A stretch of 64,000 nucleotides of DNA from Escherichia coli (GTDB lineage: Bacteria > Pseudomonadota > Gammaproteobacteria > Enterobacterales > Enterobacteriaceae), in NCBI RefSeq assembly GCF_044324785.1, contig NZ_CP172129.1; one strand, written 5' to 3'. This document shows, one piece after another, positions 9,799 through 32,099 of the stretch. Below the pieces are notes generated by a model. The model made no database searches, was not told where the DNA came from, and worked only from the letters and a program-made list of their open reading frames with translations. Both the position numbers and the translations under genes were made by a program. Every line of letters begins with the position of its first letter. The stretch's first letter is position 1.

Positions 9799-12000
9799 AT
9801 GATGATAAGCAAAAAGTATACGCTTTGGGCTCTCAACCCACTGCTTCTTACCATGATGGCGCCAGCAGTCGCTCAACAAACCGATGATGAAACGTTCGTG
9901 GTGTCTGCCAACCGCAGCAATCGCACCGTAGCGGAGATGGCGCAAACCACCTGGGTTATCGAAAACGCCGAACTGGAACAGCAGATTCAGGGCGGCAAAG
10001 AGCTTAAAGACGCACTGGCTCAGCTGATCCCTGGCCTTGACGTCAGCAGCCGGAGCCGCACCAACTACGGTATGAATGTGCGTGGCCGCCCGCTGGTCGT
10101 GCTGGTTGACGGCGTGCGTCTCAACTCTTCACGTACCGACAGCCGACAACTGGACTCTATAGATCCTTTTAATATCGACCATATTGAAGTGATCTCCGGT
10201 GCGACGTCCCTGTACGGCGGCGGCAGTACCGGTGGCCTGATCAACATCGTGACCAAAAAAGGCCAGCCGGAAACCATGATGGAGTTTGAGGCTGGCACCA
10301 AAAGTGGCTTTAGCAGCAGTAAAGATCACGATGAACGCATTGCCGGAGCTGTCTCCGGCGGAAATGAGCATATCTCCGGACGTCTTTCCGTGGCATATCA
10401 GAAATTTGGCGGCTGGTTTGACGGTAACGGCGATGCCACCTTGCTTGATAACACCCAGACCGGCCTGCAGTACTCCGATCGGCTGGACATCATGGGAACT
10501 GGTACGCTGAACATCGATGAATCCCGGCAGCTTCAGTTGATCACACAGTACTATAAAAGCCAGGGCGACGACGATTACGGGCTTAATCTCGGGAAAGGCT
10601 TCTCTGCCATCAGAGGGACCAGCACGCCATTCGTCAGTAACGGGCTGAATTCCGACCGTATTCCCGGCACTGAGCGGCATTTGATCAGCCTGCAGTACTC
10701 TGACAGCGCTTTTCTGGGACAGGAGCTGGTCGGTCAGGTTTACTACCGCGATGAGTCGTTGCGATTCTACCCGTTCCCGACGGTAAATGCGAACAAACAG
10801 GTGACGGCTTTCTCTTCGTCACAGCAGGACACCGACCAGTACGGCATGAAACTGACTCTGAACAGCAAACCGATGGACGGCTGGCAAATCACCTGGGGGC
10901 TGGATGCTGATCATGAGCGCTTTACCTCCAACCAGATGTTCTTCGACCTGGCTCAGGCAAGCGCTTCCGGAGGGCTGAACAACAAGAAGATTTACACCAC
11001 CGGGCGCTATCCGTCGTATGACATCACCAACCTGGCGGCCTTCCTGCAATCAGGCTATGACATCAATAATCTCTTTACCCTCAACGGTGGCGTACGCTAT
11101 CAGTACACTGAAAACAAGATTGATGATTTCATCGGCTACGCGCAGCAACGGCAGATTGCCGCCGGGAAGGCTACATCCGCCGACGCCATTCCTGGCGGCT
11201 CAGTCGATTACGACAACTTCCTGTTCAACGCCGGTCTGCTGATGCACATCACCGAACGCCAGCAGGCATGGCTCAACTTCTCCCAGGGCGTGGAGCTGCC
11301 GGACCCGGGTAAATACTATGGTCGCGGCATCTATGGTGCTGCAGTGAACGGCCATCTTCCTCTAACAAAGAGTGTGAACGTCAGCGACAGCAAGCTGGAA
11401 GGCGTGAAAGTCGATTCTTATGAGCTGGGCTGGCGCTTTACTGGCAATAATCTGCGTACCCAAATCGCGGCCTACTATTCGATTTCTGATAAGAGCGTGG
11501 TGGCGAATAAAGATCTGACCATCAGCGTGGTGGACGACAAACGCCGTATTTACGGCGTGGAAGGTGCGGTGGACTACCTGATTCCTGATACTGACTGGAG
11601 TACCGGAGTGAACTTCAACGTGCTGAAAACTGAGTCGAAAGTGAACGGTACCTGGCAGAAATACGATGTGAAGACAGCAAGCCCATCAAAAGCGACAGCC
11701 TACATTGGCTGGGCACCGGACCCGTGGAGTCTGCGCGTGCAGAGCACCACCTCCTTTGACGTGAGCGACGCGCAGGGCTACAAGGTCGATGGCTATACCA
11801 CCGCGGATCTGCTCGGCAGTTATCAGCTTCCGGTGGGTACACTCAGCTTCAGCATTGAAAACCTCTTCGACCGTGACTACACCACTGTCTGGGGGCAGCG
11901 TGCACCACTGTACTACAGCCCGGGTTACGGCCCAGCGTCACTGTACGACTACAAAGGCAGGGGCCGAACCTTTGGTCTGAACTACTCTGTGCTGTTCTGA
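9799..12000 (+). CDS. iutA: TonB-dependent ferric aerobactin receptor IutA
   Basis: 733-aa ORF with signal peptide, TonB box ETFVVSA and C-terminal aromatic residue typical of outer-membrane beta-barrels. Confidence 0.9.
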   Translation: MMISKKYTLWALNPLLLTMMAPAVAQQTDDETFVVSANRSNRTVAEMAQTTWVIENAELEQQIQGGKELKDALAQLIPGLDVSSRSRTNYGMNVRGRPLVVLVDGVRLNSSRTDSRQLDSIDPFNIDHIEVISGATSLYGGGSTGGLINIVTKKGQPETMMEFEAGTKSGFSSSKDHDERIAGAVSGGNEHISGRLSVAYQKFGGWFDGNGDATLLDNTQTGLQYSDRLDIMGTGTLNIDESRQLQLITQYYKSQGDDDYGLNLGKGFSAIRGTSTPFVSNGLNSDRIPGTERHLISLQYSDSAFLGQELVGQVYYRDESLRFYPFPTVNANKQVTAFSSSQQDTDQYGMKLTLNSKPMDGWQITWGLDADHERFTSNQMFFDLAQASASGGLNNKKIYTTGRYPSYDITNLAAFLQSGYDINNLFTLNGGVRYQYTENKIDDFIGYAQQRQIAAGKATSADAIPGGSVDYDNFLFNAGLLMHITERQQAWLNFSQGVELPDPGKYYGRGIYGAAVNGHLPLTKSVNVSDSKLEGVKVDSYELGWRFTGNNLRTQIAAYYSISDKSVVANKDLTISVVDDKRRIYGVEGAVDYLIPDTDWSTGVNFNVLKTESKVNGTWQKYDVKTASPSKATAYIGWAPDPWSLRVQSTTSFDVSDAQGYKVDGYTTADLLGSYQLPVGTLSFSIENLFDRDYTTVWGQRAPLYYSPGYGPASLYDYKGRGRTFGLNYSVLF

Positions 12001-13512: not shown

Positions 13513-14688
13513 ATGTTCAGAATGAGACTCATGGAAACACTTAACCAGTGCATAAACGCTGGTCATGAAATGACGAAGGCTATCGCCATTGCACAGTTTA
13601 ATGATGACAGCCCGGAAGCGAGGAAAATCACCCGACGCTGGAGAATAGGTGAAGCAGCGGATTTAGTTGGAGTATCTTCTCAGGCTATCAGGGATGCCGA
13701 GAAAGCAGGCCGGCTACCGCACCCGGATATGGAAATACGAGGACGGGTTGAGCAACGTGTTGGTTATACAATTGAACAAATTAATCATATGCGTGACGTG
13801 TTTGGTACGAGACTACGACGTGCTGAAGACGTATTTCCGCCGGTGATTGGAGTTGCTGCTCATAAAGGGGGCGTTTACAAAACCTCTGTTTCTGTTCATC
13901 TTGCTCAGGATCTGGCTCTGAAGGGATTACGTGTTCTGCTCGTGGAAGGTAACGACCCCCAGGGAACAGCATCGATGTATCACGGCTGGGTGCCAGATCT
14001 TCATATTCATGCAGAGGATACTCTCCTTCCCTTCTATCTTGGGGAAAAGGACGATGTCACTTATGCAATAAAGCCTACTTGCTGGCCTGGGCTTGACATT
14101 ATTCCTTCCTGTTTGGCTCTGCACCGCATTGAAACTGAGCTAATGGGCAAATTTGATGAAGGTAAATTGCCCACCGATCCACACCTGATGCTCCGACTGG
14201 CCATTGAAACCGTCGCTCATGACTATGATGTCATTGTCATTGACAGCGCGCCTAACCTAGGTATCGGCACGATTAATGTTGTATGTGCTGCTGATGTGTT
14301 GATTGTCCCCACGCCTGCTGAGTTGTTCGACTACACTTCCGCTCTGCAGTTTTTCGATATGCTTCGTGATCTGCTCAAAAACGTAGATCTTAAAGGATTC
14401 GAGCCTGATGTACGTATTTTGCTTACCAAATACAGTAATAGTAATGGTTCTCAGTCCCCGTGGATGGAGGAGCAAATTCGGGACGCCTGGGGAAGCATGG
14501 TCCTAAAAAATGTTGTGCGTGAAACGGATGAAGTTGGTAAAGGTCAGATCCGGATGAGAACTGTTTTTGAACAGGCTATTGATCAACGCTCTTCAACAGG
14601 TGCCTGGAGAAATGCCCTTTCTATTTGGGAACCTGTCTGCAATGAAATTTTCGATCGTTTGATTAAACCACGCTGGGAGATTAGATAA
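13513..14688 (+). CDS. sopA: Partition ATPase SopA (ParA family)
   Basis: ORF contains [38 protein letters not shown] and Walker A KGGVYKTS; alternative start 9 nt downstream possible. Confidence 0.9.
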
Positions 14689-15659
14689 TGAAGCGTGCGC
14701 CTGTCATTCCAAAACATACGATTAAGACTCAACCGCTTGAAGATACTCCGTCATCGGCACCAGCTGCACCGATGGTGGATTCGTTAATTGCGCGCGTAGG
14801 AGCTATGGCTCGTGGCAATGCTATTACTTTGCCTGTATGTGGTAGGGACGTGAAATTTACCCTTGAGGTGCTCCGGGGAGATAGTGTTGAGAAGACCTCT
14901 CGGGTATGGTCAGGTAATGAACGTGACCAGGAACTGCTTACCGAAGACGCCCTGGATGATCTTATCCCTTCTTTTCTACTGACAGGTCAGCAGACACCAG
15001 CATTCGGTCGAAGAGTGTCTGGGGTCATAGAAATTGCCGATGGGAGCCGCCGTCGTAAAGCTGCTGCACTTACAGAAAGTGATTATCGAGTTCTGGTTGG
15101 TGAGCTGGATGATGAGCAGATGGCTGCATTGTCCAGATTGGGTAACGATTATAGGCCAACAAGTGCTTATGAACGTGGTCAGCGTTATGCAAGCCGATTG
15201 CAGAATGAATTTGCTGGAAATATTTCTGCGCTGGCTGATGCAGAAAATATTTCACGTAAGATTATTACCCGCTGTATCAACACAGCTAAACTGCCTAAAT
15301 CAGTTGTTGCTCTTTTTTCTCATCCCGGTGAACTATCTGCCCGGTCAGGTGATGCACTTCAAAGAGCTTTTACAGATAAAGAAGAATTACTTAAGCAGCA
15401 GGCATCTAACCTTCACGAGCAGAAAAAAGCAGGAGTGATATTTGAAGCTGAAGAAGTCATCACTCTTTTAACGTCTGTGCTTAAAACGTCATCTGCCTCA
15501 AGAACTAGCTTAAGCTCACGACATCAGTTTGCTCCTGGAGCGACAGTGTTGTACAAGGGCGATAAAATGGTGTTAAACCTAGATAGATCTCGTATTCCAA
15601 CTGAGTGTATAGAGAGAATTGAAGCCATTCTTAAGGAACTTGAAAAAGCGGCACTTTGA
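14688..15659 (+). CDS. sopB: Partition centromere-binding protein SopB (ParB family)
   Basis: 323-aa ORF overlapping sopA stop, followed by sopC repeats. Confidence 0.9.
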
Positions 15660-17559: not shown

Positions 17560-19000
<1,441 letters not shown>

Positions 19001-19139
19001 ACCCTCCAACTCCCGCCAGCCGTGTGTGTCAGGCTGCGGCTTCCCTTGCGCCCTTTGCATCCCCGCCTTATCGCCCGGCTTTTATGGAGGCACGGCACAG
19101 CCCGGTGTCGCGGAATATGTGAACAACGGAGGAAATCCC

Positions 19140-19565
19140 ATGCAGTATGCGAAACCTGTCACTCTGAATGTTGAAGAGTGCGACCGTCTGTCTTTTCTGC
19201 CTTACCTGTTTGGCAACGATTTTCTGTATGCCGAAGCATATGTGTACGCGCTGGCGCAAAAAATGATGCCGGAATATCAGGGAGGCTTCTGGCACTTCAT
19301 CCGCCTGCCGGACGGTGGCGGTTACATGATGCCGGATGGCGACCGTTTTCATCTGGTTAACGGTGAAAACTGGTTTGACCGCACGGTCAGTGCCGATGCC
19401 GCAGGCATCATTCTGACTTCCCTTGTGATTAACCGCCAGTTGTGGCTGTACCACGACAGCGGTAACGCAGGGCTGACACACCTGTACCGGATGCGTGATG
19501 CGCAGTTGTGGAGCCACATCGAATTTCACCCCGAATGTAACGCGATTTACGCGGCGCTGGACTGA
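19140..19565 (+). CDS. klcA: Antirestriction protein KlcA/ArdB family
   Basis: 141-aa protein (start trimmed from ORF 18960..19565 to MQYAKPV behind GGAGGA); motifs [53 protein letters not shown] parallel RK2 KlcA. Confidence 0.8.
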
Positions 19566-19654: not shown

Positions 19655-20026
19655 GTGCCGGACAGTGAATGCGTTTTTGCCGTGGTGCTGACCCGTGGGA
19701 ATGTGCGCCATATGGCTCAGGACTGGAACCTGTCAGACGATGAGCTGGAAACCGTCATGCAGCGGCTGGACGATGCTTTTGTATATGGCGCATGTGACAG
19801 AGTTGTTTCCGATATTGTCAATGAACTGATGGAGGAAAAGCGCGTAAACCGCCTTGTAACAGTCCCTGCGGTGCTGCTGGAAAAAGTGATGGTGATGGCT
19901 GGTAGTGAAATTTATCGCCTCCATGCTGTCGGGAGCGAGAACGGGGGCGACGGTGACGCATTTGTCAGGGAAGAACGTGAGATTATGCGGGTGATGCGTC
20001 AGGCGCTGGACGGGGAGAACGGGTAA
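19655..20026 (+). CDS. Hypothetical leading-region protein (123 aa, acidic)
   Basis: ORF from track; position between klcA and first Frpo-like repeat; start codon uncertain (GTG, frame open upstream). Confidence 0.45.
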   Translation: MPDSECVFAVVLTRGNVRHMAQDWNLSDDELETVMQRLDDAFVYGACDRVVSDIVNELMEEKRVNRLVTVPAVLLEKVMVMAGSEIYRLHAVGSENGGDGDAFVREEREIMRVMRQALDGENG

Positions 20027-20208: not shown

Positions 20209-20442
20209 AACAGGTGATACAGGGCAGGCGGTGGAGGCCGCCTGTCAGCCCGCGCGAACCCCCCTGGCAGGCTGACGCCTGCCGGAAGGGAAGCGGGCCA
20301 CGCTGACGCGTCGCCCGTTACCCTTCCCGTTAGTGATGTGTCCGGAATGTTTTTTCTGATGTTATTTTTCTGTGGTTACCGTGTTTGTTATTGTTCTTCT
20401 TCTTTTTCCTCTTCCTCTTCTTTCCGTTCCTCTCCTGTTTAT

Positions 20443-20970
20443 GGCTTTTCCGGGCGTCCCCCTGGCGGGGCGGGCTGTCGTGAACGGAGCCAGCGGAGCT
20501 GTCTCCGCCCTGGCGGGCTTCCATCCCTGACGCGAAACCATGGCTTGCAGCGACCGTTCCGGTCGCGCCGCCTCTGTCGCGCCGTGGCCTGCGCTCCCGG
20601 CATCCCGGCAAAAGGCGCCGGAATGTAAGGAGCAACGCCGTTTCGCAAACCGCGCTTCACGTCGTTGCGGCGGGTCCCTGCTCATTGCCTGCCAAGTGCC
20701 ACACACCCGTATGAGTCCCTGTCGCCGGGGGCTGAGACAGCCACAACCTGCCGCACTGACTGTCCAGGGTAAATGAACAGCCCACAAAATTTTTTACCCA
20801 GAACCCGGTAAAAAATTTTGCGTTCTGCCCAGGACAGGTGCGTCAGGCCGTGGCAGTGATGCCCCTTGCGGCGAAGGTTCTCAAACGGGTGAAGTTCATA
20901 CCACAGGGAATACAGCAGCAGGTTCCCGCGAAACGTCAAAACCGCGGCTCCCGAAACTCAACGGGTGATG
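20443..20970 (+). repeat. Frpo/ssi-like repeat copy 1 (putative single-stranded DNA promoter), preceded by CT-rich tract
   Basis: About 530 bp nearly identical to copies at 23700-24230 and 29091-29630; begins ccttttccgggcgtccccctggcggggcgggctgtcgtgaacggagccagcggagc. Confidence 0.6.
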
Positions 20971-21201
20971 TTCTTTAAAAATCAGGATTTATTTCAGGCT
21001 CCGGCAATACGCATTTATTTGTTCTGTCAGTCATCCGGCTGGCAGGTAATGAGAACGCAGGAACAGAAGGAGGAAAACACCGGAAAGCGTCAGATGCAGA
21101 TATGAAAAAAGCAGGTCAGGGACCTGCTTAATCCACGCCGTAGAAATCGCCGCAATCGATTTTCACGGCTTCACTAACCTGTGTCATAAGGAGTTTCATT
21201 T

Positions 21202-21432
21202 ATGACAGTAAGTATTGTTTCACCTTCCGCAGCGGCTGTAAAGCCCCGCCGTCATCCCCGTTTCAGACGCGAAGACATCCCCGCGCCGGAAATTGACCCC
21301 GTGCTGAAAGCATTCGGGCGACACATAGCCCGGAGTTTTCACCGGGGACGTGGTGTACACATCCCCGCCATGAAAAACACGGCTTTCGGGCAGGTGCTCC
21401 GCACACTTGAACTGAAACGCGCTTTTAACTGA
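21202..21432 (+). CDS. Hypothetical small basic protein (76 aa), first gene downstream of Frpo-like copy 1
   Basis: ORF with AAGGAG-like SD (cataaggagtttcatttATG). Confidence 0.5.
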   Translation: MTVSIVSPSAAAVKPRRHPRFRREDIPAPEIDPVLKAFGRHIARSFHRGRGVHIPAMKNTAFGQVLRTLELKRAFN

Positions 21433-21483: not shown

Positions 21484-22845
21484 ATGACATTAGCAGCAAT
21501 CACCATGACCGCCCCAGAAGCCGCCAGCCCTGTGCAGATGTACCGCGCGACCTACTCACCGGATGACAACAAACTGCGCCTGTATGCTGCGTCACGTCTT
21601 GACCCGGAGACGTATAAAAAAGTGCATGATGCCGGTTTTCGCTGGGCACCAAAACAGGCGCTGTTTGTGGCTCCAGCCTGGACACCGGGCCGGGAAGACG
21701 TGCTCCTCTCACTTGCCGGAGAGATTGAGGATGAAGACAGCACGCTCGCTGAACGTCAGGAAGCACGGGCGGAGCGGTTTACCGGATACAGCGGAAAGCG
21801 GGCCAGTGAATCCGCACAGGCACTTGATGAAGTGGAAAGACTGGCCGCGATGATCCCGCCCGGTCAGCCCATTCTTGTGGGGCATCACAGCGAACGCCGC
21901 GCCCGTCGTGATGCGCAGCGTATTGAAAACGGCATGAAACGTGCCGTGATGCTCGTTGAACGTGCGGAATACTGGGAAGAGCGGGCGCGGTCGGCACTGC
22001 TTCACGCGAAGTATAAAGAACGTCCGGACGTTCGCTGGCGTCGTATCAAAAAAATCGAAGCTGATTTGCGCAAGGCTGAAAAGACCATCGCGCAGTCGCA
22101 GAAATATCTGACGATATGGCGGGCTGAATCGCTGGATCTGAATATGGCAAAACTCATCAGTAGTCATGACCGTATCAGTGCCTGTTTCCCGCTGGATACG
22201 TATCCGCGCCCGGCAGAAAAAAGCCAGTATGAAGGAAGTCGATCGTTATGGTCGGCCCTGGATGATGACATCATCACCACGGAGCAGGCCCGCGAAATTG
22301 CGATCCGCTGTCATAAACGGCAGATTCAGCATCAGCAACGCTGGGTTAACCACTATCAGAACCGCCTGATCTATGAGCGTGCCATGCTGGACGAAAGCGG
22401 CGGCGTGGTTACCCGGACACAGGATTTTGAGCCGGGCGGACAGGTTTTCAGCCGGGGCGAGTGGCTGACCATCATCCGCGTGAACAAAAGCAACGGGACG
22501 GTGAGTTCAGTCACAACGCCGAATTACAGTTTTCTCGGGTACAGTGGCACGATGAAAGTGACGCCCGATCGCATTACGGACTACAAAGCACCATCGGCAG
22601 AAGAGGCTGCCGTCGCCAGTCAGGCCGCTAAGCGTCCGCCTGTTGTCAACTATCCGGGAGAAGGTTTCCGGGAAATGACAAAGGCACAGTGGGCTGCCCT
22701 GCCCCGGGACTGTAAGGCCGTGCGCAGTGTGGCAGAGGCAGAAGACCACGGGGCATATCGTTACCGCCGCACAATGGACAATAATTTCCGCCTGGTGAAT
22801 GTGTATATCACCGACATGAAGATTACGGAAATCCCACAGAAATAA
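21484..22845 (+). CDS. Conserved leading-region protein (453 aa), possibly DUF3560-like
   Basis: ORF from track with SD ggaaggagaacattttATG; family name is from memory and unverified. Confidence 0.55.
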   Translation: MTLAAITMTAPEAASPVQMYRATYSPDDNKLRLYAASRLDPETYKKVHDAGFRWAPKQALFVAPAWTPGREDVLLSLAGEIEDEDSTLAERQEARAERFTGYSGKRASESAQALDEVERLAAMIPPGQPILVGHHSERRARRDAQRIENGMKRAVMLVERAEYWEERARSALLHAKYKERPDVRWRRIKKIEADLRKAEKTIAQSQKYLTIWRAESLDLNMAKLISSHDRISACFPLDTYPRPAEKSQYEGSRSLWSALDDDIITTEQAREIAIRCHKRQIQHQQRWVNHYQNRLIYERAMLDESGGVVTRTQDFEPGGQVFSRGEWLTIIRVNKSNGTVSSVTTPNYSFLGYSGTMKVTPDRITDYKAPSAEEAAVASQAAKRPPVVNYPGEGFREMTKAQWAALPRDCKAVRSVAEAEDHGAYRYRRTMDNNFRLVNVYITDMKITEIPQK

Positions 22846-22892
22846 GGTATATCCTCCCGGGAAAATCCCCGGGGGATGACGGAGATAATGAC

Positions 22893-23456
22893 ATGTACAG
22901 TCAGTTAAGAGAACGTATCCGGCTGATGCGCGCAAGGCTGGATAACGCCGCGCCGGTTGCTGAAATCCGGGCTGAATCTCAGCTTTTTGTGACTCCTGCC
23001 CCGGTCTGTGATCGCCTGGTGACGCTGGCGGGGATCAGCAACCGTGATCACATTCTGGAACCCTCTGCCGGCACCGGGGCCATACTGCGGGCGATTAGGG
23101 ATACCGCGCCGGTAGCCATGTGTGATGCGGTGGAAATCAACAGCGGGCTGGTCCGGTATCTGCGGGAAAATTTTAACGGTGTCAGGGTTCAGTGTGGCGA
23201 CTTCATGGAATGGCAGCCGGTGCAGTATTACAGCCGGGTTATCATGAATCCGCCGTTCAGCCACGGGCAGGATATCCGGCATATCCTGCGGGCCTTTTCC
23301 CTGTTGCGTCCGGGTGGCGTGCTGGTCGCCGTCTGTCTCAACGGGCCACGCCAGCAGGAGAAGCTGTTACCGTTTTCTGACGTCCGCGAGGAGCTGCCGC
23401 GCGGCACATTTGCTTATACCGATGTCCCGACGATGATTATTCGTCTGCGTGCCTGA
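22893..23456 (+). CDS. Orphan DNA adenine-N6 methyltransferase
   Basis: SAM-binding motif I EPSAGTGAIL and catalytic motif IV NPPF present; no adjacent restriction endonuclease gene. Confidence 0.7.
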   Translation: MYSQLRERIRLMRARLDNAAPVAEIRAESQLFVTPAPVCDRLVTLAGISNRDHILEPSAGTGAILRAIRDTAPVAMCDAVEINSGLVRYLRENFNGVRVQCGDFMEWQPVQYYSRVIMNPPFSHGQDIRHILRAFSLLRPGGVLVAVCLNGPRQQEKLLPFSDVREELPRGTFAYTDVPTMIIRLRA

Positions 23457-23699
23457 AGACTCCGGGCAGGCGGGAGGATAAATGCTCGTCTGCCCGCGCC
23501 GGGAAAAGACCGCGCGCCGGTGGCGCTGAAAGGGGCCGCGCTCACGCGCCGCCCCTTTCATTACGCGGAAATTCTGCTGTGGGCTTCTGTCTTTTCAGAT
23601 CTGTCATTTGTCTGTTACTGATGATGTTCCTGCTACTGCTACTGTTTTTCTTTTTTCTGCTGCTCTGATTACTGTCTGTCTTGTTCTTCTTCTGCCTGT

Positions 23700-24230
23700 G
23701 CCTTTTCCGGGCGTCCCCCTGGCGGGGCGGGCTGTCGTGAACGGAGCCAGCGGAGCTGTCTCCGCCCTGGCGGGCTTCCATCCCTGACGCAAAACCCCTG
23801 GCTTGCAGCGACTGTTCCGGTCGCGCGCCTCTGTCGCGCCGTGGCCTGCGCTCCTGGCATCCCGGCAAAAGGCCGCCGGGATGTAAGGCGCAACGCCGTT
23901 TCGCAAACCGCGCTTCACGTCGTTGCGGCGGGTCCCTGCCCGTTGTTATGTCCGGTGCCATTCACCTGTTTAAGCCCCTGTCGCCGGGGGCAAAGACAGC
24001 CACAACCGTCTCCGCCAGTCCAGGGGTGAAATGCACATCCCGCAAAACTTTTTGCCCAAAAGCAGGCAAAAACTTTTGCGGTCTGCCCCCGGACAGTCGT
24101 TTCCTGCCGTGGCAGTGATGCCCCTTGCGGCGAAGGTTTTCAAAAAGGTGATGGTGAATACCGGAGGGAACAAAAGGCAGGTCCCCGCAAAACGTCAAAA
24201 CCGCGGCTCCCGAAACTCAAAAGATGATGG
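23700..24230 (+). repeat. Frpo/ssi-like repeat copy 2 (putative single-stranded DNA promoter), preceded by CT-rich tract
   Basis: Same 5' ~300 bp as copies 1 and 3, divergent central segment; directly upstream of ssb. Confidence 0.6.
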
Positions 24231-24261
24231 GGCTGAAAACATCAACAGAAGGAGACACATC

Positions 24262-25090
<829 letters not shown>

Positions 25091-28754: not shown

Positions 28755-29090
28755 CAACCTGGAGGCGGGCGCAGGCCCGCCTTTTCAGGGCTGATGCTGG
28801 TCTGACTGCACTGAAGCGCCTTTATAAAGGGGCTGCTGGTTCGCCGGTGGCCCCTTTCTCCTTGCTGGCATTGTGCGGGCATGAACAACCAGACTGCCAG
28901 GAAGGCCGTTTCCCTCCGGGAACGGGGATGAACGTGCGCCTGCGGCGCCCGTTCTTTTCCCCCGCCTTCTCTGTTTATGACCTGTCAGAAATCACATCAC
29001 CTTCCCTTTGATTATTCTCTTTTTCCTCCTGTTCTGACTCTGATTACTGCTGCCCTGATTATTGTCTGTTTTGTTGTTCTCCTGCTTATG

Positions 29091-29630
29091 CCTTTTCCGG
29101 GCGTCCCCCTGGCGGGGCGGGCTGTCGTGAACGGAGCCAGCGGAGCTGTCTCCGCCCTGGCGGGCTTCCATCCCTGACGCGAAACCCCGGGCTTGCAGCG
29201 ACCGTTCCGGTCGCGCCGCCTCTGTCGCGCCGTGGCCTGCGCTCCCGGCATCCCGGCAAAAGGCCGCCGGGATGTAAGGGGCAACGCCGTTTCGCAAACC
29301 GCGCTTCACGTCGTTGCGGCGGGTTCCTGCCCGTTGTTGTGTCCGGTGCCATTCACCTGTTTAAGCCCCTGTCGCCGGGAGCTGATACAGCCACAACCTG
29401 CCGCACTGACTGTCCAGGGTAAATGAACAGCCCACAAAATTTTTTACCCAAAACCCGGTAAAAAATTTTGCGTTCTGCCCAGGACAGGTGCGTCAGGCCG
29501 TGGCAGTGATGCCCCTTGCGGCGAAGGTTCTCAAACAGGTGATGGTGAATACCGGAGGGAACAAACGGCAGGTCCCCGCAAAACGTCAAAACCGCGGCTC
29601 CCGAAACTCAACAGATGATGGGGGCTGAAA
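29091..29630 (+). repeat. Frpo/ssi-like repeat copy 3 (putative single-stranded DNA promoter), preceded by CT-rich tract
   Basis: Near-identical to copy 1 over its full length; directly upstream of ORF 29653. Confidence 0.6.
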
Positions 29631-29652
29631 ACCAGAGAGAGGAGAAAGCAGG

Positions 29653-31699: not shown

Positions 31700-32099
31700 T
31701 GACTTTATCCGTAAATAATTTAACTCACTCCACAAAAAGGCTCAACAGGTTGGTGGTTCTCACCACCAAAAGCACCACACCCCACGCAAAAACAAGTTTT
31801 TGCTGATTTTTCTTTATAAATAGAGTGTTATGAAAAATTAGTTTCTCTTACTCTCTTTATGATATTTAAAAAAGCGGTGTCGGCGCGGCTACAACAACGC
31901 GCCGACACCGTTTTGTAGGGGTGGTACTGACTATTTTTATAAAAAACATTATTTTATATTAGGGGGGGCTGCTAGCGGCGCGGTGTGTTTTTTTATAGGA
32001 TACCGCTAGGGGCGCTGCTAGCGGTGCGTCCCTGTTTGCATTATGAATTTTAGTGTTTCGAAATTAACTTTATTTTATGTTCAAAAAAGGTAATCTCTA
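31700..32099. other. oriT: Origin of transfer oriT with nic region and TraM binding sites
   Basis: caccacaccccacgcaaaaacaag is the complement of the F-type nic sequence GCGTGGGGTGTGGTG (nick near 31776 on minus strand); downstream palindromes gcggtgtcggcgcgg...ccgacaccg and ataccgctaggggcgctgctagcggtgcg resemble R100-type TraM sites. Confidence 0.75.

Follow-up and report, generated by a model that had tools for sequence, protein, structure and literature searches.

Orphan methyltransferases are enriched in plasmid leading regions (PMC11541004), and the main hypothesis on their function is that they protect incoming DNA in advance (PMC11541004, PMC7736820). The working model is M.EcoGIX, whose promiscuous methylation of the entering single strand blocks restriction and so shields pESBL (PMC7736820). 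A related DNA-entry theme is found in the DarB-type polyvalent methylase-helicase dyad, which is delivered together with the DNA (PMC5512222). Here, we analyzed ydcA, a methyltransferase gene of 187 amino acids (aa) at positions 22893-23456 of a 64,000-nucleotide (nt) stretch of Escherichia coli DNA (assembly GCF_044324785.1, contig NZ_CP172129.1); this whole stretch, which is an IncF ColV-type plasmid, is called the window below. An earlier note, made from the letters of the window, had read the gene as an orphan adenine methyltransferase of the leading region that may pre-methylate incoming DNA or act in regulation. The simplest reading of our sequence comparisons is that ydcA does not encode a self-sufficient orphan and that YdcA would form the C-terminal half of an enzyme, with YdbA, a protein with a domain of unknown function (DUF), DUF3560, as the N-terminal half.

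Part of this picture was already known. The gene has long been annotated as IncF ydcA, RefSeq labels its product "class I SAM-dependent methyltransferase" (SAM, S-adenosylmethionine), some database records call YdcA KsgA/Dim1 or an rRNA adenine methyltransferase, and the anti-restriction idea for leading-region methyltransferases has been published. The present analysis is a refinement and not a discovery. Its new elements are the tie between ydcA and DUF3560 through fused and split forms, the missing recognition domain, the relatedness to methylase domains in giant phage proteins, and the private copy of an Frpo-like repeat that accompanies the ydbA-ydcA cassette.

Like M.EcoGIX and M.BceJIII, YdcA is encoded in the early-transferred region, in the orientation for which the transferred strand is the template, has no partner endonuclease, and is predicted to be expressed early and transiently. 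However, M.EcoGIX is a beta-class enzyme (DPPY motif, PF01555) without detectable homology to YdcA, and activity has been shown for M.EcoGIX. Genes of the PF01555 type occur separately from ydcA (i.e., in F, which lacks ydbA-ydcA, and beside ydbA-ydcA in the metagenomic leading region L007 and in the Serratia sequence L010). The DarB-type dyad contains a methyltransferase domain homologous to YdcA, with the same TP-capped helix and NPP[YF] motif, flanked by LPD36 on the N side and an SF2/SNF2 helicase on the C side; YdcA matches methyltransferase domains embedded in giant phage proteins at E ≤ 1e-30. YdcA has neither of these flanking domains; it ends at residue 187, and an Frpo-like repeat and then ssb follow. 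The partner of YdcA is DUF3560, which is not mentioned in PMC5512222, and YdcA would be made in the recipient, whereas the dyad arrives with the DNA.

YdcA is a predicted amino-methyltransferase without a recognition domain

The ydcA open reading frame (ORF), read in the window on the + strand, comprises 187 codons from an ATG start, with a Shine-Dalgarno sequence (GGAG) 8 nt 5' of the ATG. Its translation contains DHILEPSAGTGAILRAIRD and RVIMNPPFSHGQD, with motif I (EPSAGTG, residues 56-62) lying within LEPSAGTGAIL (residues 55-65) and motif IV (NPPF, residues 119-122) within MNPPF (residues 118-122). Residue conservation was read from a YdcA alignment of 41 sequences (38-65% identity), in which E56, P57, G60, G62, E81, D103, M118, N119, and P121 are invariant, and P120, F122, and F104, plus L31, F32, T34, and P35 of an LF.TP motif, are conserved in at least 90% of the relatives. 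The Pfam family MTS (PF05175, the "small domain" of class I methyltransferases) matches YdcA with 27.1 bits against a cut-off of 23 (E = 3.9e-6), and an exhaustive search of cluster representatives returned 9926 relatives at E ≤ 1e-3 and 4849 at E ≤ 1e-10. Because of this match, the thousands of relatives, and the invariant catalytic motifs, ydcA is not a chance ORF. The ORF and the SAM-binding (EPSAGTGAIL) and NPPF motifs named in the earlier note were found as described, and the near-complete conservation of all motif residues supports a catalytically competent YdcA.

The best solved relative of YdcA is M.TaqI, retrieved at E = 2e-5 with the single sequence and at 5e-10 with a family profile (22-24% identity). 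The alignment spans the TP motif, motif I, and NPPF/NPPY, and M.TaqI is the only match in which the TP motif is aligned: FVTP of YdcA (residues 32-35) pairs with ETP of M.TaqI, and helix 36-46 follows in the structure model. A TP-capped N-terminal helix (motif X) combined with NPP(Y/F) is the signature of EcoKI/TaqI-like adenine methylases, including those of polyvalent proteins (PMC5512222, section 14). The motif order of YdcA is gamma-like (motif I, acidic motif II, motif III [DF], then motif IV NPPF), as in the gamma-class enzymes M.TaqI and EcoKI-type HsdM, and the Pfam scan gave no match to the beta-class family N6_N4_Mtase (PF01555, DPPY). With M.TaqI as the best solved relative, the chemistry of YdcA is likely to be adenine-N6 methylation.

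The AlphaFold 2 (AF2) model of YdcA has a mean predicted local distance difference test score (pLDDT) of 88.3, with values of at least 90 in almost every 10-residue block of residues 30-187. From the N terminus onward, the model shows a low-confidence helix (residues 2-17), a linker, the TP-capped helix (36-46), and a seven-stranded alternating beta/alpha core (53-187). Foldseek returned 1333 methyltransferase-type matches in the PDB at E ≤ 0.001, including M.TaqI and HsdM at template modeling (TM) scores of 0.64-0.73; the type I HsdM/PacII structures scored highest (0.69-0.73), and M.TaqI scored 0.64-0.69. Beyond the core and the TP-capped helix, the predicted structure contains no target-recognition domain. 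M.TaqI reads its site with a C-terminal domain of about 180 residues, and type I enzymes need HsdS; YdcA lacks the former, and Pfam and PADLOC scans of the neighboring ORFs revealed no HsdS-like gene near ydcA. DUF3560, although not among the known recognition domains, may stand in for one. The same scans found no nuclease, restriction component, or defense partner among these ORFs. The absence of a cognate endonuclease nearby, as earlier claimed, is borne out, and "orphan" is an apt term in the restriction-modification sense; it does not suit YdcA as a self-sufficient enzyme, which has no recognition domain and a DUF3560 partner half.

Homologous domains were also found in defense and phage proteins. 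The best PADLOC match was mad2 (2.1e-20), and the other ten, in a library that holds only defense proteins, were nine type II and one orphan DNA methyltransferase. Residues 28-185 of YdcA align with positions 269-443 of the 492-position Mad2 profile (PDLC04134). Mad2 is part of the host defense system MADS and not a plasmid establishment gene. Membership of YdcA in MADS was rejected, given that only the methyltransferase domain matches and that the window contains no other mad genes. In PHROGs, the YdcA domain matches the interior of giant phage proteins (profiles of 1259-3925 positions; E down to 3e-32), and YdcA-like domains lie within an approximately 3800-aa virion protein of Pseudomonas phage Epa33 and an approximately 2740-aa protein of Shewanella phage X14.

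YdbA and YdcA occur as fused and split forms of one protein

The tie between YdcA and YdbA emerged from the long relatives. The best 135 newly listed cluster representatives included 63 of at least 400 aa, and in 60 of these 63 the YdcA-like domain is C-terminal to a YdbA-homologous region; Pfam detected DUF3560 in eight of ten sampled long relatives. YdbA aligns over all of its 453 residues (33-52% identity) with the N-terminal part of 41 fused proteins, and YdcA continues those alignments past a variable, proline-rich linker. When a fused protein (P0146, 669 aa) was used as the query, 4981 of the 5000 best plasmid records matched at least 80% of it at one site, so that the two halves are adjacent and collinear essentially wherever they are found. 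The single-chain DUF3560-methyltransferase is found in betaproteobacterial and Pseudomonas plasmids and the split form in Enterobacterales. A MOBF/MPF_F conjugative plasmid of [Acidovorax] ebreus, for example, carries the fused form among ssb, DUF945, kleA, and radC, and L007 (53% identity) has the split pair in the gene order of the window.

Within the window, ydbA and ydcA lie in different frames, 47 nt apart, and their spacer holds a GC-rich hairpin followed by the Shine-Dalgarno sequence (Table 1). The Serratia spacer (L010 positions 7300-7344) contains two in-frame stops, a GC hairpin, and GGAGG, with the hairpin in the same position as in E. coli; in a relative with 45% identity (L009), the two ORFs overlap by 4 nt. 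Because both ORFs, all catalytic residues, and the ribosome-binding site are kept across that divergence, the split appears to be under selection. Taken together, the fusions, the adjacency and collinearity, and the conserved split are most simply read as indicating that ydcA encodes half of a two-subunit enzyme. A frameshift or read-through joining the genes was also considered, since their frames differ with about 60 nt of open overlap and a hairpin thereafter. This possibility was rejected because the sequence lacks a canonical slippery heptamer, because ydcA is preceded by a Shine-Dalgarno sequence of its own and its product has a conserved helix starting from Met1, and because two stops interrupt the Serratia spacer.

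DUF3560/YdbA corresponds to family 28 of a previous survey, an uncharacterized family of 1913 members that is enriched in leading regions (PMC11541004, Supplementary Table 1). The YdbA model (pLDDT 91.9) shows a small N-terminal alpha/beta domain, approximately 220 residues of long helices holding DUF3560 and a conserved GQPILVGHHSE loop, a small beta-barrel, and a C-terminal alpha/beta domain. The DUF3560 fold has no relative among the PDB or BFVD structures searched. YdbA is basic (isoelectric point [pI], 9.1) and has many conserved arginines. In one relative (P0202, 1018 aa), a DNA polymerase III beta (sliding clamp) domain is placed before the DUF3560-methyltransferase. In a separate match, phage ZS04 (H83), the ORF that contains this methyltransferase domain bears the annotation "processivity factor". 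Such cases hint that the enzyme may track along DNA or be coupled to replication.

Rearranged forms were also observed. E. coli database entries include deletion variants that join part of YdbA straight to YdcA and hybrids that join YdcA to a fragment of a PF01555 methylase (P0121, 400 aa; P0109, 275 aa; P0019/P0101). These variants and hybrids suggest that the region is often rearranged.

The cassette lies in the leading region and carries its own Frpo-like repeat

The window contains a single exact match to GCGTGGGGTGTGGTGC, which we take to be the nick motif of F oriT. The motif is on the - strand, which is therefore the transferred strand; as this strand enters with coordinates descending from about 31.8 kb, genes on the + strand are templated by it. 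ydcA is on the + strand, approximately 8.3 kb inside the leading region. Together with the establishment genes on either side, the nick sequence confirms the location given in the earlier note.

Three direct repeats of about 620 bp are present in the window versus two in F, and they are 81-92% identical to the two Frpo-carrying repeats of F. Copy 1, which shares 90% identity with the repeat that precedes ssb in F, folds on the - (transferred) strand into a long imperfect hairpin (-153 kcal/mol; z = -7.0). Because copy 1 precedes the 76-aa ORF, ydbA, and ydcA, and copy 2 opens the ssb block, the cassette carries an Frpo copy of its own. Class 1 promoters of this kind, active on single-stranded DNA (ssDNA), give the leading-region operons of F and pESBL a strong but short-lived burst of transcription in early transconjugants (PMC12672017), and by analogy copy 1 may act as a single-strand promoter. 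A scan for sigma-70 promoters upstream of ydbA returned nothing above chance, which fits a structure-dependent ssDNA promoter but is not proof of one. The direct repeats bracket the cassette, which could be gained or lost by homologous recombination between them; for this reason, its patchy presence in IncF plasmids, including its absence from F, fits recombination. Copy 2 also contains a 139-aa ORF whose pECOS88 counterpart is a hypothetical protein in RefSeq; this ORF is probably a spurious call in a structured noncoding element.

A proposed function in DNA entry and its alternatives

The explanation that we favor, and consider about equally apt to hold or to fail, is that YdbA-YdcA is a two-part, low-specificity adenine DNA methyltransferase that is expressed from the entering strand and methylates plasmid DNA in advance, thereby lowering restriction. 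Within minutes of its entry into the recipient, the incoming single strand would serve as the template for transcription of the cassette, which would be silenced once the complementary strand is made. YdcA would contribute no more than the SAM-binding site and the NPPF active site of an amino-methyltransferase; YdbA would bind YdcA and provide substrate binding or targeting, which is the weakest link of the proposal. The substrate would be adenine N6 of the plasmid's own DNA, methylated with low sequence specificity, so that some of the incoming DNA would already be protected by the time host restriction enzymes encounter it as duplex. We also entertain, more tentatively and with some doubt, the idea that DUF3560 is a new-fold module by which the catalytic core is loaded onto incoming ssDNA or onto the duplex-conversion machinery, with promiscuous N6-methyladenine formation in the first minutes. 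If this is true, the problem that M.EcoGIX solves would have been solved a second time by an enzyme of unrelated evolutionary origin, which thousands of clinical IncF plasmids with resistance and virulence genes carry as a pair and betaproteobacterial plasmids carry as a single chain.

Several points weigh against a role of YdbA-YdcA in protecting plasmid DNA. F and many other IncF plasmids manage without both ydbA and ydcA, so the cassette is dispensable for transfer. The searchable literature contains no experimental work on YdcA or YdbA and no methylation motif tied to ydcA, and the promoter role given to copy 1 is carried over from the Frpo/ssi work (PMC12672017). No recognizable DNA-binding fold was detected in YdbA by searches that included the PDB and the predicted viral structures of BFVD; its targeting role is deduced only from fusion, adjacency, the basic pI, and the conserved arginines. 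As for the substrate, Foldseek intermixes DNA and RNA adenine methyltransferases at TM scores of 0.6-0.73, and in the profile search the rRNA adenine methyltransferases Dim1/KsgA and Erm are only about 2 bits behind M.TaqI (40.2 versus 42.5 bits). Because profile and fold searches do not separate the two, the choice between DNA and RNA rests on context, from which DNA is the probable substrate. Hence the adenine part of the earlier claim of a DNA adenine methyltransferase is likely on the strength of M.TaqI, and the DNA part is unproven with Dim1/KsgA and Erm so close.

These near matches bear directly on the alternative that YdbA-YdcA methylates host RNA or protein (rRNA or tRNA adenine, guanine N2, or glutamine) and thereby reprograms or disarms the recipient. 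NPPF-type motifs occur also in RNA and protein amino-methyltransferases. Dim1/KsgA, Erm, HemK, TrmN, and Trm11 are among the close profile and fold matches, with the Erm/KsgA enzymes, which have the class I fold and the adenine-N6 active-site type of YdcA, as the second-best profile matches; the lack of a DNA recognition domain is likewise shared with the minimal enzymes Erm37/Erm41. We nonetheless regard this alternative as unlikely. The scores of YdcA are far below the cut-offs for Erm (33.4 versus 212) and KsgA (29.0 versus 171) in NCBIfam and below that for RrnaAD in Pfam (19.8 versus 24), the Erm/KsgA alignments take in only the N-terminal ~100 residues, and the C-terminal RNA-binding domain of these enzymes is absent from the YdcA model. 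The best single match, and the sole one that aligns the TP motif, is M.TaqI rather than Erm/KsgA. All PADLOC matches are DNA methyltransferases, within the limits of a defense-only library, and relatives of YdcA are fused to a sliding clamp or lie inside DarB-like polyvalent giant phage proteins, whose methylases are read as DNA methylases (PMC5512222). Among the alternatives, we would leave the most room, while still considering it improbable, for a DNA methyltransferase that marks the incoming strand for uses of the plasmid itself and not for anti-restriction; it might serve strand discrimination while the complementary strand is synthesized, the timing of leading-gene shut-off, evasion of methyl-directed repair, or epigenetic control of plasmid genes. 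Orphan methyltransferases are commonly regulatory (PMC7736820, PMC11602122), deletion of an adenine methyltransferase had no restriction-specific effect in one tested plasmid (PMC11602122), the cassette adjoins ssb and ParB-like genes for the handling of single-stranded DNA, and a sliding-clamp fusion exists. Against this stand M.EcoGIX, the nearest functional precedent in a leading region, which protects from restriction (PMC7736820), the antirestriction gene alongside the cassette, and the family's occurrence among injected phage proteins linked to anti-restriction (PMC5512222); in addition, no plasmid-specific methylation-sensitive site is known.

The split organization itself can be read in two other ways. 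If YdcA were a stand-alone orphan DNA adenine methyltransferase, as in the earlier note, and ydbA an unrelated neighbor, the separate ORF, with its own Shine-Dalgarno sequence and start codon in a frame different from that of ydbA, would be expected; moreover, free-standing phage relatives of similar size exist (e.g., in Vibrio phages, 96% coverage and 33% identity), and a few plasmid records (H28 and H38) list the methyltransferase without a DUF3560 annotation. The missing target-recognition domain, the predominance of DUF3560 fusions among the long relatives, the near-universal adjacency and collinearity in plasmid records, and the conservation of the split pair down to 45-53% identity make this quite unlikely in our view. 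To the idea that the cassette is a decaying remnant, in which the split inactivated an ancestral fused enzyme and ydcA is carried passively, we attach very little weight. It would account for a split form where the majority is fused, for the absence of the cassette from F, and for the truncated and deletion variants that are common in databases. Yet both ORFs are intact, every catalytic residue is kept from 100% down to 45% identity, a proper ribosome-binding site is present at the split in E. coli and Serratia, and the gene is full-length in about 4000 plasmids.

Distribution and relevance of the cassette

PLSDB holds at least 4040 plasmid records that match the DNA of ydcA (80-100% identity); most of them come from E. 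coli and Klebsiella, and the gene is intact in 3986 of these 4040 matches. In both groups, resistance and virulence genes travel chiefly on IncF plasmids, and at least 4000 sequenced plasmids have the cassette. If the proposed function is correct, YdbA-YdcA would be part of the toolkit with which these plasmids cross restriction barriers and would explain the often small effect of restriction on conjugation. The fusion evidence is the first functional lead for DUF3560, and ydcA is best studied together with ydbA.

Mentions of yubD, ydcA, ydbA, and DUF3560 in the literature are incidental (i.e., a pS88 transcript table and Klebsiella CRISPR spacer targets), and the searchable literature reports neither methylation nor anti-restriction for the YdbA/YdcA family. 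A published analysis of Klebsiella pneumoniae reports chromosomal CRISPR spacers against three genes, namely the DUF3560 gene (with three spacers), that of the SAM-methyltransferase, and a hypothetical gene upstream of the latter (PMC6965323); on account of these matches, hosts appear to target the ydbA-ydcA cassette. The "DNA methylase" of the F leading region is a different, 227-aa gene located further upstream and a homolog of M.EcoGIX (PMC12672017). yubD of F was rejected as an equivalent of ydcA, being a separate beta-class gene.

Gene neighborhood

From left to right, the window contains large ORFs, presumably the aerobactin genes by analogy with ColV plasmids, followed by sopA/sopB, the establishment block, an SLT transglycosylase gene, and the tra operon (Table 1). 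The ydbA-ydcA cassette sits between the antirestriction gene and ssb, and beyond ydcA the neighbors are, in order, ssb, a DUF905 gene, a 667-aa ParB-like gene, psiB, psiA, and a DUF932 gene.

Table 1. Positions of ydcA, ydbA, and surrounding features in the window
Feature	Positions	Strand	Remarks
Large ORFs	3966-12000		Presumed aerobactin genes
sopA and sopB	13513-15659		Corresponding ORFs
323-aa ORF	17767-18738	-	See text
ArdB/KlcA-type antirestriction gene	18960-19565		PF03230
DUF1380 family protein	19655-20026		Name from RefSeq in pECOS88; no Pfam match here
Frpo-like (class 1) repeat, copy 1	20362-20985	-	Upstream of the ydbA-ydcA block
76-aa ORF	21202-21432	+	First gene after repeat copy 1; hypothetical protein in pECOS88; Pfam match sub-threshold only
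ydbA	21484-22845	+	453-aa DUF3560 protein; proposed noncatalytic partner and N-terminal half of the split enzyme
ydbA-ydcA spacer	22846-22892		
GC-rich hairpin in the spacer	22854-22875	+	Read directly from the sequence
GGAG	22881-22884		Shine-Dalgarno sequence of ydcA
ydcA	22893-23456	+	187-aa class I SAM-dependent amino-methyltransferase; proposed catalytic half of the split enzyme
GC hairpin, then short T run	23532-23559	+	Terminator-like; 3' of ydcA; read by eye; low confidence
139-aa ORF	23542-23961	-	In repeat copy 2; probably spurious
Frpo-like repeat, copy 2	23619-24244	-	Starts the ssb, DUF905, ParB-like, psiB, psiA block; bounds the cassette
ssb ORF	24031-24894	+	287 aa; see text
Frpo-like repeat, copy 3	29009-29635		Direct repeat of about 620 bp
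F-type nick sequence GCGTGGGGTGTGGTGC	31772-31787	-	Single exact match in the window

For the terminator-like hairpin downstream of ydcA, an automated scan made no terminator call on the + strand at that place. The leading region of the window appears to have ydbA-ydcA as its only methyltransferase. Some related leading regions hold further methyltransferases beside the pair (L007 positions 2126-2806 and 14378-15208; L010 positions 2319-2963), for a total of two or three different ones: an F-like beta-class PF01555 gene accompanies ydbA-ydcA, and L007 additionally has an N6_Mtase (PF02384) gene. The 323-aa ORF between the sop genes and the antirestriction gene matches in position an IS110-like ISEc32 transposase gene in pECOS88 and is an insertion in the outer part of the leading region. 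The ssb ORF runs back into the Frpo-like repeat; its SSB domain begins at residue 83 and is preceded by a Met (MAVRGINKV...), and the true start of ssb is probably near 24265.

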